Shown: piece by piece, positions 13,417 through 50,011 of the stretch
Numbering within the stretch: position 1 is the first letter of the stretch
Layout: each line of letters opens with the position of its first letter
IMG/VR virus record: IMGVR_UViG_3300032321_001270
Location: 128,001 to 192,000 of that record
DNA from: a virus
Lineage: Duplodnaviria > Caudoviricetes
DNA length: 64,000 nucleotides
Strand: one strand, 5' to 3'
The notes under the pieces: generated by a model
Database searches by the model: none
Told to the model about the DNA's origin: nothing
What the model saw: only the letters and a program-made list of their open reading frames with translations
Made by a program: the position numbers and the translations under genes

Positions 13417-13458
13417 GGAGGGCGCCGGGGCCGAAACCCCGACGCCCTCCATGGCGTC
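13417..13458 (-). promoter_or_regulatory. overlapping terminator-like hairpin and CsrA-type ANGGAN hairpin (putative RNA switch)
   Basis: 14-bp stem 13417-13430 / 13437-13450 with a UUCG-containing loop; alternative perfect 6-bp stem GACGCC-AUGGAG-GGCGUC at 13441-13458. Confidence 0.65.
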
Positions 13459-19510: not shown

Positions 19511-19553
19511 CCCGCTGTGGTACCGGCCATCCGTGACCAGTACCTGCAGCGGG
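19511..19553 (-). promoter_or_regulatory. CsrA-type binding hairpin (CACGGAUG apex)
   Basis: About 17-bp stem (G-U pairs only on the minus strand) capped by C-ACGGAU-G. Confidence 0.65.
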
Positions 19554-26476: not shown

Positions 26477-26549
26477 AGCCGGCGGTCGGACTCGAACCGA
26501 CGACCTACTGATTACAAATCAGTGGCTCTACCAACTGAGCTACACCGGC
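26477..26549 (-). tRNA. tRNA-Thr(UGU)
   Basis: Full cloverleaf: acceptor GCCGGTG/CGCCGGC, D arm GCTC/GAGC, anticodon stem ACTGA/TCAGT with loop TTTGTAA, T arm GTCGG-TTCGAGT-CCGAC. CCA is not encoded. Confidence 0.97.
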
Positions 26550-31181: not shown

Positions 31182-31655
31182 AAGCTTTTTCTTAGGTTTT
31201 CGCTTTGGCTTTGGTTTCGACTGCGCAAACAATTTTGTAATACGCCCAAGCACGGCGTTCGCCGTCGTTTTTTTGTAGTCGACTTTGTCCCACGCTTGGT
31301 GCGTTTCTTTTGCCAGCCCGCGGCGGCTCGCTTCAAGGTCGTGAAACAGGCTGTACTGTGGGTTGTACCACTTGTAAGCGCTGCCCTTGCCCTTGCAGCT
31401 TACGTAGTCGCAAACCGAGATTTCAAAAACAGTGCTTGTCACACTGTCCATGATGATCTGCGCGCCGGCAATAAACCCGGTTGCGCGCGGGTCATCTTTT
31501 TGCGGACGCGGTCCGATGCGAGACGCGTCGATTATTACGGCGTTCCGCCCATAACAATCCCAGCAGTATTTTTCGGCGCTATCAATCGTGTACTTGCACG
31601 CTTGGAAAAAGCGTGCAAGTTGTTCAAACCCGCAGTGGTCAATTTTTGTCGACAT
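31122..31655 (-). CDS. hypothetical protein with basic tail
   Basis: Y.W.CYG..A and AYKWYNP motifs, AWD.VDY. Confidence 0.7.
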   Translation of the reverse strand: MSTKIDHCGFEQLARFFQACKYTIDSAEKYCWDCYGRNAVIIDASRIGPRPQKDDPRATGFIAGAQIIMDSVTSTVFEISVCDYVSCKGKGSAYKWYNPQYSLFHDLEASRRGLAKETHQAWDKVDYKKTTANAVLGRITKLFAQSKPKPKRKPKKKLSAPGKFAKALKRKKTVRRR

Positions 31656-31884
31656 GTGCGATATGTTTTATCCGTTTGACAAGTTCGCGCAACGCCGCAA
31701 GCGCTGGGTTTTCGCGAACCTTGGGCGTGAGAGCGCCCGGGTCGATGTTTTGAGATGAGAGGCCGCTAAGTTCTTCTTGGCGGCAAGATTCTAAATAGTG
31801 ATGCCAGTTATCGTAGGCGTCACGGTCTTCGTCTGATTCGTACGGTCTGTATGGTTCGTCAAGAAGTCTGTCGTTCCAACCCAT
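31639..31884 (-). CDS. hypothetical protein
   Basis: ORF track, operon packing. Confidence 0.6.
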   Translation of the reverse strand: MGWNDRLLDEPYRPYESDEDRDAYDNWHHYLESCRQEELSGLSSQNIDPGALTPKVRENPALAALRELVKRIKHIAHVDKN

Positions 31885-32053
31885 CTTTCTTTTTGTCCTC
31901 GTTTTTGACTAATAGTTCACCGCGCACGATGGACGTGGCTTTGGGCGCGGTTAAGCCGATCTTTACTCTATCGCCGGTAATCCCCAGCACTTTGACGACA
32001 ATGCCGTTACCAATTACGACTTCCTGTTCCTTCTTCCTTGAGAGTACAAGCAT
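31859..32053 (-). CDS. csrA: carbon storage regulator CsrA/RsmA
   Basis: MLVLSRKKEQEVVIGNGIVVKVLGITGDRVKIGLTAPKATSIVRGEL aligns with CsrA; the R6- and R44-equivalent RNA-binding residues are retained. Confidence 0.93.
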   Translation of the reverse strand: MLVLSRKKEQEVVIGNGIVVKVLGITGDRVKIGLTAPKATSIVRGELLVKNEDKKKDGLERQTS

Positions 32054-32063
32054 GATGGCTCCA

Positions 32064-32735
32064 TCATTCTGTTGCAGATTTTTGCAGTAACTCAACCACG
32101 GACTTCGTGTTGCCGTTTTGCAAATCTAACGCCGCGAGTTGTTTGATAAGTAATCCAGTTTTCAAACGAATTGACTGGTTAATGTCTTCTGTTTTTCCGG
32201 CCTCTACGTCATACACAGCGTTGAACATCTCAGGATCATCCGAGAAGTCTTGAATGGAGGGCGACACGCGGGCGGCTCTGAGTGCCACGCGCAGGATGTC
32301 GGGGGCGTTGATGATTCCTTCACTGTCGAGCACGGAACCGATGTAGGCGCGTATCTCATCTGTAAACGGTTCCGGGTCTTCATCGTCGGGCGGGGAGATT
32401 AGCAAGGCTTCTGTAATCCCCCACGCCACTTCTTCGGCGTCAGCGGGATCCCACATATCTGGTCGGTATGTGTCGCCGCCTAGAACGTTGCAAAAATTAA
32501 TGAAATCGGGCAGGCTTTTAAAGAACTGATCTGTGGTGAGAAGCTGAATGGCGACCAGCAGCTTGTCGAGTGACAACTGGGGAAGCTCGACGTCAAACTC
32601 TTCTTCAATTTCGAGGGTGATGGTGGCTGGGTCCCAGTGCAACGCTTCCATCCCAAATTTGTCAAGAAACAGCGTCAGTAGTACTGTCGCAAACGTCTCC
32701 CGGCTCTTCCACGCTTCCTGCATTATTTTTGACAT
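32064..32735 (-). CDS. conserved hypothetical protein
   Basis: ORF track; well-formed acidic helical protein. Confidence 0.75.
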   Translation of the reverse strand: MSKIMQEAWKSRETFATVLLTLFLDKFGMEALHWDPATITLEIEEEFDVELPQLSLDKLLVAIQLLTTDQFFKSLPDFINFCNVLGGDTYRPDMWDPADAEEVAWGITEALLISPPDDEDPEPFTDEIRAYIGSVLDSEGIINAPDILRVALRAARVSPSIQDFSDDPEMFNAVYDVEAGKTEDINQSIRLKTGLLIKQLAALDLQNGNTKSVVELLQKSATE

Positions 32736-33207
32736 TGAGGCCAGCCCTGTTCTCAATCAGCCGCACACCCCGGTGGCGCAGCTCGACTAGATTATACGCG
32801 ATTGTCTCTAGCGGCGTCCTTGGAAGAGTCGTAACCCGTTCTCCAGACTCAAGATCCGTCCAGCCAAATTGCCCGCTCCACGTGGCAAACCGCCCATCCG
32901 CGAAAGCGATCTGTTGGGCGCAGCACGGGTGGTTGTCTGCCGTCTCAGGCCAGTCTTCCATGTGCCGCGACGCCCACATCAGCTCTAGCAGCAGCAAGCG
33001 CTGTTCTGCAGACAGAAACGCAAGGTTTTCCATCATGTCAGCGATCAGGATGTAAAACACCGCATCTTCGGCAAGCGGGGCGTCTGGAGCCGGGGCCGTC
33101 TTTTTCATTACAGCCGAAAAAAGATTGCGTATTTGCAACTTGCTAAGTTTTACGACCCGCATTACCATATCGAGCGTCAGGTCTTTTTTCACTTCGGAGG
33201 TAGCCAT
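32662..33207 (-). CDS. hypothetical protein
   Basis: Protein-like segment from MATSEVKK; start uncertain (33207, 33219/33222 or internal). Confidence 0.6.
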   Translation of the reverse strand: MATSEVKKDLTLDMVMRVVKLSKLQIRNLFSAVMKKTAPAPDAPLAEDAVFYILIADMMENLAFLSAEQRLLLLELMWASRHMEDWPETADNHPCCAQQIAFADGRFATWSGQFGWTDLESGERVTTLPRTPLETIAYNLVELRHRGVRLIENRAGLNVKNNAGSVEEPGDVCDSTTDAVS

Positions 33208-33484
33208 GTCTGTTTCCATCATCGACAACCTTTCTAACATTACGTCTGGTCGCGCTGAATTCGTCGTCAGCGCCAATGGTATCGAAGAACTTCTGTCGTC
33301 GGCAACTGCAAACGTCGTGCTGCAAAAAGCTGCGGAAGCCGGACTGAACCGCCCGGGGGTTTCGAGCGCGAGCGGCCCATATCCGGTTGACGCTGACGGC
33401 AAGACCGACGACGAGTTGATGATGGGCAAGCGCGGCCCGGTCGCCGGTTACCGTCGAGATTTTGTTATCTTAGCTTCGATTTGA
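33206..33484 (+). CDS. hypothetical protein
   Basis: GGAGG-5 nt-ATG; GPYPVDADG motif; stop abuts the opposite-strand stop. Confidence 0.75.
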   Translation: MSVSIIDNLSNITSGRAEFVVSANGIEELLSSATANVVLQKAAEAGLNRPGVSSASGPYPVDADGKTDDELMMGKRGPVAGYRRDFVILASI

Positions 33485-34792: not shown

Positions 34793-35045
34793 AACTCCCT
34801 TGTAACGCGTGGAAAGGGAGCTACTGATACGATACAGTAGCGACAATAAATATGCCGCGTTTTTGGGAAAAATTTAGCGTCGTCTGGAATTCGCGAATTG
34901 CGAACATCGTTGCAATTAAACGACTTACGGCGCAAAGTATCGTGTTCTAGAAAATGGAAAATGCAACCGCCGCCCCGCGCTGACCTAGGGCATGGAGCCC
35001 GTTGGCCGCGTGGAACGCAGCCGTTCAGTCAGCGCAGGGCGGCGG
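34793..35045 (-). ncRNA. structured intergenic RNA / leader (three-way junction plus SD-sequestering hairpin)
   Basis: 18-bp stem 34967-34984 / 35028-35045 enclosing two hairpins; further hairpins at 34795-34820 and 34820-34841. Confidence 0.5.
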
Positions 35046-48058: not shown

Positions 48059-49987
48059 TTATGTTGCGCTATAGACGATACCTGTGACGCGCAACACGCC
48101 AATTTCTCCGTATACGTTATCTTCTGTGCGTCCAATCGTGACGAGCACGGTGTCGCCTTCTTCCACAGAAAACTCCGCGCTGTCGCGCTGAATTGCGTGA
48201 TCGATGAACAAGTTAGCGCTCGAATCAAAAATCAGTGGTACGTCGGCTGTTTCCAGCTTTTCACCGTCTGTTGCCGTCGAAGCCGGTTCTGAAAGAATGC
48301 GGCGCGTCATATACAGCGACGGCATAACTTTACGTGCGCCTAGTGGTGCCGCGCCGCCGTCGCGACCAAATAGCTGCACGCGAATTTTCATCTTTAAGTT
48401 ATCGCCAATATTGCTTCCGGGCACGTTAAACCGCAACCGCAATAGCGCTTCTTGCCCGCTCGGAAAACCCAAGTACGGAATATCCATGTACAGGCGCTCA
48501 ACGGTGTCGCTAAGGCGAATAATTTGCGGTGAAATTTCGCGTTCAACCAGTTGATCAGTGTAGTCAATTTTCAAAATACCCTGATGCAGGGTAATCGGCG
48601 CGGTGGTAGTCAGATCGAACTGTTGCTTTTCGCTGGTTGTCAAGTTGCGCGGCGCACCACGAGAACCTGTAATTGAAATTTGATTTGATGTGGTAAAGGC
48701 ACCCTCGGCAATCCAACCGCGCGTTAACTGGTGCCGATTGATCACACCCTTAATAGCCTGTCCGCCGCTGGCTTCTTCCGCAGCAATTTGCAGATCCAAA
48801 TTTAACTGTAAGTCGCCAGTCGATGCCGGCATATCTGCGCAGTTTGTAATAGCAATCGGGCTGTTGACCGTGGCAGCAGCTGGTGTTGTTGTCGTGGCAA
48901 TGTTATTTGACGCAGCAACGTCTTTAACAACACTTGTCACTGACTTACGATCGTTGCCGACCAGCATGCGTAGGTAGACCACAGCGAGGCGCAGAGTTTC
49001 GTTGCGCGGGCACTCACCTGTCGGCGGCGGATCTTCTTCGGTGACTGGGGTTTCCGACCACGGTACGTCTCCCGTGCAATTGCTCATCCACCAAATGCCG
49101 TTGGTATCGCAAATTGCCAAGCCATTGCGGCCGAGCGGGATTTCTGTGGCGCCAACGTGGTCAGCTCCTTTGTCCCAGAGCATGGCCACTGATTGAATCG
49201 GCAGGGGCGGCCACACATTAGCCAGCGCTGAATGCTGGCTCAGGTTGTAACCAAACAGCGCGCCGTTCGGGGCCTTGCCGTTAAAAACAGAATGACTTGC
49301 TGGCAGCCATCCGGGCAACGCTGGGTTTGGGTTGGTAATAACGCGATGACTTGCGCCGTTATGAACGATTGCGGCTGTCGTACCGGCGGGCTGGGCAACA
49401 AGATCAAAACGATAGTGCGTGTGCTCGTCGATGAAGTCTCGAATGTGCGGCATAACCACAACGCGCGGCACACTGGAACAGTTATTTTTTGGTCCTTGTA
49501 CGTGGCAAACGCTAACGGTAACTGCCGGTTTCTGCCGGACTAGTTTTCCGGGCTCAGCCGACGACAGGTAATAACGCCCCGGCTCAATTGGGCCGTCGAT
49601 CGCGTTCTGCAAATCCGGCACATTAACAATGCCGCGCAACACGATATCGCCGAGCGTTTCAGATCGTTTGGTGAGGCAGATCCCGACGCAATCCGACGAC
49701 GGCTGAACTGCAAGCGCCTGCGTTTCGCTGTTGGTCGTTACGGCTGCCAGCGCCTTTTCGTAACGATGCTCGACCCAGTTCCAATACACCGGCTGGCCGG
49801 GAAGTACGTCTGAGCAAATCGTCGCGCCGTTGTCTACGAGCGCCTGCCCGAGAGCCGCTGCGTCGAGACGGTCTTTGAGATAGTCAGTGCGGTCCTCTAG
49901 CGTACGGTCTGGGCGGGAAACAATGCCCGCTTGGACCGGCTCGCCGGGATTGACGTGTTTGATATTATGCAGCCAGTTACCGGACAT
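48059..49987 (-). CDS. tail fibre / baseplate attachment protein
   Basis: N-terminal SRPDRTLEDRTDYLK, similar to the fibre NRPxxxLxxRTxYL anchor; GRYYLS...PG.L. Confidence 0.65.
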   Translation of the reverse strand: MSGNWLHNIKHVNPGEPVQAGIVSRPDRTLEDRTDYLKDRLDAAALGQALVDNGATICSDVLPGQPVYWNWVEHRYEKALAAVTTNSETQALAVQPSSDCVGICLTKRSETLGDIVLRGIVNVPDLQNAIDGPIEPGRYYLSSAEPGKLVRQKPAVTVSVCHVQGPKNNCSSVPRVVVMPHIRDFIDEHTHYRFDLVAQPAGTTAAIVHNGASHRVITNPNPALPGWLPASHSVFNGKAPNGALFGYNLSQHSALANVWPPLPIQSVAMLWDKGADHVGATEIPLGRNGLAICDTNGIWWMSNCTGDVPWSETPVTEEDPPPTGECPRNETLRLAVVYLRMLVGNDRKSVTSVVKDVAASNNIATTTTPAAATVNSPIAITNCADMPASTGDLQLNLDLQIAAEEASGGQAIKGVINRHQLTRGWIAEGAFTTSNQISITGSRGAPRNLTTSEKQQFDLTTTAPITLHQGILKIDYTDQLVEREISPQIIRLSDTVERLYMDIPYLGFPSGQEALLRLRFNVPGSNIGDNLKMKIRVQLFGRDGGAAPLGARKVMPSLYMTRRILSEPASTATDGEKLETADVPLIFDSSANLFIDHAIQRDSAEFSVEEGDTVLVTIGRTEDNVYGEIGVLRVTGIVYSAT

Positions 49988-50011
49988 CCTTGTCCTCCGG
50001 CAGTTAGTTGA

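Follow-up and report, generated by a model that had tools for sequence, protein, structure and literature searches.

When analysing a 64,000-nucleotide stretch of DNA from an uncultured virus (the window; IMG/VR virus record IMGVR_UViG_3300032321_001270, positions 128,001 to 192,000; Duplodnaviria, Caudoviricetes), we found on its minus strand a gene for a 64-residue protein of the CsrA family. The gene, csrA, is the third of a block of four (p255-p223-csrA-p81), and its Shine-Dalgarno sequence (SD) and the first two letters of its start codon fall within an inverted repeat that an earlier note on this DNA had taken for a regulatory hairpin. The results showed that the gene is a true phage csrA, carried by an uncultured phage of 205 kb, and indicated that the repeat over its start is probably incidental. 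A family of hairpins with loops of the form ANGGAN (N, any nucleotide) was found at ribosome-binding sites of the same genome, and these may be the targets of the protein. Positions are those of the window unless the genome is named, and the features are collected in the table below.

The csrA product matched Pfam family PF02599 with 71 bits (cut-off 27) over profile positions 1-50 of 53, and a PF02599 search over the whole genome returned the csrA product at 70.2 bits. It also matched PHROG 9500 ('CsrA-like regulator'), and its closest solved relatives were B. subtilis CsrA, RsmE, and E. coli CsrA (E ~2e-8 to 3e-8). The AlphaFold2 (AF2) model, a monomer only, had a predicted local distance difference test score (pLDDT) of 79.7 and displayed the beta-strand core and short C-terminal helix of the CsrA fold; the top 15 matches in the PDB were all CsrA, RsmA, or RsmE chains, mostly at a root-mean-square deviation (rmsd) of 1.7-1.9 Å over ~46 residues. 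The RNA-binding residues L2, L4, R6, R44, and E46 (E. coli numbering) were all present. Among 25 orthologues with 34-80% identity, M1, L2, V3, R6, G15, V30, G33, R44, and E46 were invariant, and L4 was invariant or nearly so; the retention of the R6 and R44 equivalents, to which the earlier note had drawn attention, was thus confirmed. The protein is basic, with an isoelectric point (pI) of 9.9. Conservation of this kind would be expected if the CsrA is functional in RNA binding, and binding of RNA by the phage protein is predicted.

The mRNA of the p223-csrA junction (minus strand) reads GAA-UGA-UGG-AGC-CAU-CAUG, in which AUGAUGG (32067-32061) is complementary to CCAUCAU (32058-32052). The repeat had been described correctly, both in its letters and in its coordinates, and the p223 stop codon, the GGAG, and the AU of the csrA AUG lie within it as claimed. 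The proposal that SD and start codon are locked in a hairpin is overstated. Since the arms are just 2 nucleotides (nt) apart, the inner G-C pair is sterically impossible, and ViennaRNA predicted a 6-bp AUGAUG/CAUCAU stem with a GAGC tetraloop, having an energy of -4.2 kcal/mol alone and -5.3 kcal/mol with two flanking bases per side. The loop contains three of the four bases of the SD, and in the AUG the A and U alone pair, as terminal A-U pairs; because most SD bases lie in the loop, the SD is not locked. In an 81-nt context the folding was no better than that of shuffled sequences (z -0.37), and the 50-nt folding energy at the csrA start was ordinary (36th percentile). Such a structure is also no commoner than chance predicts: when the starts of 265 crudely called genes of the genome were examined for perfect hairpins (stem of 6 bp or more, loop of 3-8 nt) reaching from SD to start, two were found, one of them at csrA, where ~4 are expected from the genome-wide density of 393 hairpins of this kind on each strand.

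IMG/VR was scanned with CsrA and, separately, with the upstream protein, and the two scans yielded 33 loci of the same gene order with 29 distinct junction sequences. At none of the 29 distinct orthologous p223-csrA junctions were SD and start covered by a hairpin with a stem of 6 bp or more. At four of them 5-bp hairpins (G-U allowed) were observed, in a different register in each, and the median unpaired probability of the orthologous starts was 0.50, near the genome median of 0.52. In the closest relatives (loci L052-L060) the 5' arm AUGAUGG is kept because it consists of the last codon, the stop codon, and the SD, and the 3' arm has ACACA, ACAAG, ACACG, or CUACC in place of CCAUC. The SD of these closest relatives is GGUGA, without GGA, and across the relatives it is GGUGA, AAGG, GGAA, and similar. 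The complementarity of the arms is thus private to one phage lineage and probably incidental.

E. coli CsrA represses its own translation by binding several GGA sites, one of them over its own SD. The region from -20 to +45 of the phage csrA contains four GGA and three A(N)GGA motifs, and one GGA is in the SD. This arrangement, a GGA-bearing SD followed by more GGAs within ~45 nt of the start, resembles the E. coli csrA leader, and the resemblance holds for this one phage. Unlike in E. coli, the other three GGA motifs are coding, all inside codons 6-11 (R-K-K-E-Q-E); when this peptide was recoded synonymously with the codon usage of the phage, at least three GGA arose in 12% of the trials (P 0.12), so that the coding-region GGAs are expected from peptide and codon usage. 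A further difference is that the phage csrA has no free 5' leader, because it starts 10 nt after the p223 stop. Nor are the motifs conserved: GGA occurs upstream of the start in 12 of the 29 orthologous leaders, and six of the 29 have no GGA at all. Thus, the data do not support leader-mediated self-repression as a trait of the gene family, and the autoregulation that the earlier note had considered possible finds no backing in the weak and unconserved hairpin or in the GGA motifs.

Features of the csrA locus and hairpin sites in the window (all on the minus strand; hairpin loops in square brackets)
Feature	Position	Strand	Description	Matches or scores
csrA coding sequence	31859..32053	-	64 residues, ATG 32053-32051, stop included	PF02599, PHROG 9500, PDB CsrA chains, AF2 model
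Inverted repeat	32052..32067	-	effective hairpin AUGAUG 32067-32062, GAGC loop 32061-32058, CAUCAU 32057-32052	ViennaRNA -4.2 kcal/mol, unconserved
csrA SD	32059..32062	-	GGAG, 5 nt before AUG; first G alone in stem
p223 stop codon	32064..32066	-	TGA, within 5' arm, 10 nt before csrA start
Three GGA motifs	32022..32037	-	csrA codons 6-11 (AGG-AAG, AAG-GAA, CAG-GAA)	top 1-3% of genes
p255	32662..33429	-	first gene of block; 3' end overlaps p223 start by ~74 nt
p223	32064..32735	-	upstream gene; acidic, all-alpha, most conserved of block	pI 4.1, pLDDT 88
p81	31639..31884	-	downstream gene; start overlaps last 26 nt of csrA
ANGGAN hairpin	13441..13458	-	GACGCC[AUGGAG]GGCGUC
ANGGAN hairpin	19519..19544	-	10 bp (G-U pairs included), ACGGAU hexaloop
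ANGGAN hairpin	49982..49995	-	GGAC[AAGGAU]GUCC, holding SD and start codon of a gene for 642 amino acids	kept in relatives G003 and G004

The four-gene block with csrA as its third member was present in 33 of the 34 loci with a p223 at least 65% identical to that of the phage; within these loci the identity was 65-89% for p223 and 35-84% for CsrA. The csrA start follows the p223 stop at a distance of 10 nt in this phage and in the closest relatives, and of 8-24 nt over all orthologues. The p255/p223 overlap of ~74 nt is found in all relatives, and the csrA/p81 overlap is mostly 26 nt among orthologues. Positions 31859-31884 are thus dual-coding: the CsrA tail NGLER(Q/P) is the other frame of the p81 N-terminus MGWNDR, in which MGWND is invariant and the arginine at position 6 nearly so. 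The csrA frame of one subclade, as a result of a frameshift, runs across p81 and reaches 96 residues, with p81 left unchanged, so that the CsrA tail is not the part being selected. Scans for promoters and terminators near csrA gave results at the level of shuffled sequences. Upstream of the csrA-containing operon, in a structured region between genes, a match to the Rfam family DUF3800-VIII RNA was observed (34969-35043, minus strand; 47.7 bits, gathering score 40.2).

The gaps of 8-24 nt and the 26-nt overlap make coupled translation plausible, and termination-reinitiation after p223 is the most economical reading of the arrangement. Translation of csrA would then most likely depend on ribosomes that finish p223 10 nt upstream, and csrA would hand on to p81, whose start lies within its last 26 nt. 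At -4.2 kcal/mol and with the SD in its loop, the hairpin would at most slightly favour coupled over independent initiation; it does not have the stable and conserved stem of a hairpin that enforces coupling. Of the translational coupling proposed earlier, the coupling itself is therefore plausible from the gaps in all orthologues, whereas its enforcement by the hairpin is not upheld.

We regard it as probable that this csrA is a genuine and fixed gene in a translationally coupled block and that the hairpin at its start is incidental and without evidence for an operator function. Some observations weigh against this view. As many GGA in the -20 to +45 region as in csrA were found in just seven of the 265 genes, and as many A(N)GGA in three (top 1-3%). 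The unpaired probability of the csrA start is 0.33, placing it in the lowest 6% of the 265 genes, which is mildly unusual but not extreme. A regulatory role of the csrA leader may be limited to this single lineage, and the coupling is read from the spacing of the genes.

A family of hairpins elsewhere in the genome has the form of known CsrA sites. A canonical site was defined as an ANGGAN hexaloop closed by at least four Watson-Crick pairs, and the controls were made by swapping the 3' flanks among ANGGAN sites (300 runs). The coding strand contained 18 such hairpins, compared with 2.7 ± 1.6 in the controls (maximum 8), and nine with a stem of at least 5 bp, compared with 0.8 expected; on the other strand there were none, compared with 1.2 expected. 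The loop pattern A.GGA. ranked first of the 256 x.xxx. patterns (18 compared with 2.4 expected, 7.4-fold, Poisson P 1e-10), and the second-best pattern had a P of 3e-3. The overall hairpin rate of the genome equalled the random expectation. Hexaloops with GGA at positions 3-5 numbered 27, compared with 9.9 expected, and GGA in other loop sizes or positions was at expectation, save for the 8-nt loop, which is the same hairpin minus one pair. In ribosome-binding regions, nine of the 75 A.GGA. hexamers were enclosed by stems, compared with 23 of the 4941 other hexamers (odds ratio 29, P 5e-10); gene starts are therefore not generally hairpin-rich. When the scan was made lenient (GGA in a 4-9 nt loop, stem of at least 4 bp, G-U allowed), hairpins were found at the ribosome-binding sites of 67 genes, compared with 65.7 ± 6.1 in flank-permuted sequences, and the signal is thus confined to the strict hexaloop register. 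Motifs of the CANGGANG type were also enriched in comparison with dinucleotide shuffles of the coding strand. An excess of CA at -3/-2 of the GGAs in ribosome-binding sites was not taken as evidence by itself, since it reflects an extended SD, in which A is enriched at -1/-2 and C at -3 is not. We found no Rfam Csr/Rsm RNA in the window that could be a sponge RNA, and the genome maximum was 6 ANGGA per 300 nt.

Seventeen of the 18 hairpins are at gene junctions, and in most of them the loop begins 11-16 nt before the start codon; in a few, the start codon is within or at the loop. The capsid-gene site, which is present at both contig ends, accounts for two of the 18, so that 17 unique sites remain. 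The major capsid gene itself is found at both ends (genome 203,879-204,802 and 3-521), with few differences between the copies, and because of this repeat the 'linear' record probably contains an assembly overlap of a circularly permuted genome. The two hairpin sites that the earlier note had mentioned, at 13441-13458 (AUGGAG) and 19519-19544 (ACGGAU), both belong to the ANGGAN family. One leader contains two sites in tandem, CGGUUAG[ACGGAU]CUAACCG and CACUGA[AUGGAU]UCAGUG, 26 nt apart and directly before a gene for 203 amino acids (genome ~32,030-32,060, 96 kb before the start of the window). Two sites with this spacing correspond to the paired arrangement that CsrA dimers prefer.

The strongest site, GGAAC[AUGGAG]GUUCC, lies in front of the gene for a 308-residue protein that matches the major capsid protein of Salmonella phage Arash, and ANGGAN hairpins are also carried by the immediate neighbours of the capsid gene on both sides. 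In 33 distinct orthologous sequences of the capsid site, 85.5% of the cells of the 5-bp stem pair, compared with 66% in shuffled sequences, and 24 double-sided changes were counted, compared with 6.1. The covariation score was 0.417, compared with 0.116 in shuffles, none of which (0 of 500) reached it, and slid controls scored at most 0.195. Orthologous sites before a gene for 254 amino acids likewise keep the loop and change the stem (GGCAU/AUGCC, GGCAC/GUGCC, and GCGC/GCGC).

The hairpin family was also found in related genomes. In three relatives with csrA, the ANGGAN hairpins on the coding strand numbered 17 compared with 2.4 expected (G006), 16 compared with 2.9 (G003), and 11 compared with 2.6 (G004), and the pattern ranked first of 256 in each. 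A fourth, G005, which has csrA at another locus, had 11 compared with 5.9 expected (rank 10 of 256). Two distant relatives without csrA had no significant excess, about 2-fold at most and on one strand: the counts on the two strands were 7 compared with 3.6 expected and 3 compared with 3.8 for Arash (ranks 15 and 153), and 8 compared with 3.9 and 3 compared with 4.0 for Vibrio phage D69 (ranks 11 and 176). The most over-represented hexaloop hairpin of Arash and D69 was CUUCGG (14 and 5 copies), probably representing terminator-type stem-loops. Over 10 more related contigs, the presence of csrA and that of the capsid-gene hairpin showed no clean correlation.

The form of the hairpins is exactly that of the SD hairpin of hcnA bound by RsmE and of the CsrA ligands obtained by systematic evolution of ligands by exponential enrichment (SELEX; PDB 2JPP), for which the consensus is (A/U)CANGGANG(U/A) with the GGA in a hexaloop; examples are C[AUGGAG]G and [ACGGAU], the latter having the same sequence as the loop of hcnA. 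When superposed on RsmE, the model of the phage CsrA gave an rmsd of 1.9 Å, and binding of such RNA is predicted. The hairpin of the csrA leader differs from this form. AUGGAG is the commonest loop among the genome's CsrA-type hairpins, but in the csrA leader just one G-C pair closes it, and pairing occurs 2 nt out of this register, giving the GAGC tetraloop as the stable fold, so that it is not an ANGGAN hexaloop site.

It is thus possible, though short of probable, that the main RNA targets of the phage CsrA are the phage's own ANGGAN hexaloop hairpins at ~17 ribosome-binding sites, including that of the major capsid gene. With more reserve, we suggest that a captured bacterial CsrA may have become the trans-acting factor of a phage-internal translational regulon. 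In such a regulon, the ~17 conserved, covarying hairpins would place the SD, or a few times the start codon, in a canonical CsrA site, the regulated genes would include those for the major capsid protein and both its neighbours, and a regulator encoded in a replication block would thereby time or dose the synthesis of late proteins. Such a system would correspond in function to T4 RegA and would have been built from a global regulator of the host. RegA is a small RNA-binding protein, encoded in the replication gene cluster of T4, that represses several phage mRNAs and its own. The phage CsrA is similarly a small phage RNA-binding protein in the replication region, with a translationally linked upstream gene and with candidate operators over the ribosome-binding sites of other phage genes; unlike RegA, it has an unrelated fold and a different motif, its candidate targets include late head genes, and self-repression is unsupported.

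Other data speak against a regulon of this kind. G005, G013, G014, and G016 encode CsrA without having the capsid-gene hairpin, and the excess of ANGGAN hairpins in G005 is just 1.9-fold. The four signal-bearing genomes are from one clade and are therefore not independent. An SD in a hairpin loop could also serve translation without CsrA. The self-contained post-transcriptional circuit suggested in the earlier note thus receives independent, if indirect, support from the register-specific, strand-specific, and covarying hairpin family and none from the csrA leader. The capsid-gene hairpin, the tandem leader, and the sites at 13441-13458, 19519-19544, and 49982-49995 are candidate CsrA ligands with statistical and covariation support and make self-regulation of the phage by its CsrA directly testable; the hairpin at the csrA start adds nothing to the question of what the phage CsrA does.

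Three other explanations have to be considered. The phage CsrA could act mainly on host mRNAs of a Csr or FliW-CsrA regulon (defence, motility, carbon storage), with the ANGGAN hairpins being CsrA-independent structures that keep strong SDs exposed. The published proposals for phage CsrA do concern host manipulation, and it has been suggested that phage CsrA may repress host CRISPR-Cas and observed that phage and host CsrA co-occur (PMC8450108). The nearest cellular CsrAs, from planctomycetes and Bacillota, are up to 60% identical to the phage protein, and several CsrA-encoding relatives do without the capsid-gene hairpin. It is, however, difficult to reconcile a CsrA-independent role of the hairpins with an enrichment confined to the exact CsrA register (A at loop position 1, GGA at 3-5), other GGA loop sizes being at expectation, or with the absence of a significant excess from the two relatives without csrA. 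The tandem hairpins 26 nt apart before one gene, in a geometry suited to the CsrA dimer, also argue against it, and we consider a main action on host mRNAs rather unlikely. The hairpin at the csrA start could, alternatively, have been selected: it would hide SD and AUG, csrA would be translated only when ribosomes completing p223 melt it, and CsrA would bind the region of the AUGGAG loop and repress its own synthesis. The low stability of the hairpin, its SD mostly in the loop, its chance-level frequency, its absence from 29 of 29 distinct junctions, the GGA-less SD of the closest relatives, and the failure to present AUGGAG as an ANGGAN hexaloop make this improbable, despite the position of the stop codon within the 5' arm and of the start codon's AU within the 3' arm, the poor accessibility of the start (6th percentile), the frequent use of AUGGAG as a loop elsewhere in the genome, the four GGA motifs, and the self-repression of E. 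coli CsrA.

Finally, p223 or p81 could be a dedicated partner or antagonist of CsrA, in the manner of FliW or CesT, which would explain the tight linkage. The fliW gene of B. subtilis is located immediately upstream of csrA. The neighbours of the phage csrA are acidic (pI 4.1 for p223 and 5.2 for p81) and CsrA is basic; the genes stay linked even where the identity of CsrA falls to 35%, and p81 was detected solely beside csrA in the sampled loci. We nevertheless hold such a partnership to be very improbable, since distant relatives have p223 with no csrA beside it (one of them having csrA elsewhere in the genome), the all-alpha p223 is unlike FliW or CesT and has no PF02623 match, p81 is unchanged in the subclade with the frameshifted CsrA tail, and conserved gene order is common in large phages. 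As a FliW-like partner p223 was rejected on account of its confident all-alpha model, the lack of a PDB match, and its occurrence without an adjacent csrA. A fold search with the p223 model returned no match in the PDB and one uncharacterised viral match, and its look-alikes in the structure atlas weakly hint at helicase-loader families. The phage csrA shares with the FliW-CsrA switch of Bacillota, Campylobacterota, and Planctomycetota (PDB 5DMB) an N-terminus (MLVLSRK) and nearest cellular relatives of this non-gammaproteobacterial type, and an acidic gene directly upstream. A Pfam search for fliW (PF02623) beside the phage csrA gave no match in the upstream gene (about 230 residues) or in the 81-residue downstream gene, and four sampled planctomycete csrA loci, among those nearest to the phage copies, are not beside fliW, unlike in the FliW-CsrA switch.

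Phage-encoded CsrA/RsmA proteins are an established class (Campa et al. 2021, PMC8450108; Sobrero and Valverde 2020, PMC7366521; PHROG 9500). In the first functional test that we found, knock-down of a csrA homologue, PTXU04_00028, gave small plaques (Adler et al. 2025, PMC11879866), and the authors of that study stated that csrA's role in the phage life cycle had previously been untested (PMC11879866). The protein described here resembles the known phage homologues in being a small, phage-encoded member of the CsrA family with the full RNA-binding core. It differs from them in that it is at most 49% identical to any GenBank phage copy, is fixed in a clade of ~200-kb phages, and is encoded in a conserved, translationally linked block, and in that the genomes of the clade are enriched in CsrA-type hairpins at their own ribosome-binding sites. 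Our search of the literature found no publication on a phage CsrA linked to hairpins on phage messages.

The record that contains the window is a 205,188-bp virus judged 100% complete, carrying a terminase, a baseplate J gene, and a collagen-like fibre. The 3 kb surrounding csrA had no match at the DNA level among GenBank phages. When GenBank phages were searched with tblastn, 51 records matched CsrA, and the identity to any phage copy was at most 49%. The nearest cellular CsrAs were from Planctomycetota and Bacillota. A phylogeny with cellular copies placed the phage copies loosely among Planctomycetota; in this tree of 56 columns 74 of the 116 branches were unresolved, and we claim neither a donor nor a host from it. 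Searches of whole records found CsrA in most complete genomes of the wider family and did not find it in the cultured distant relatives Arash and D69. The gene is a fixed one in a clade of roughly 200-kb phages. Some relatives had two CsrA-family matches, which were adjacent in G010 and far apart in G014. The window also contains a gene for tRNA-Thr (UGU) at 26477-26549 on the minus strand.

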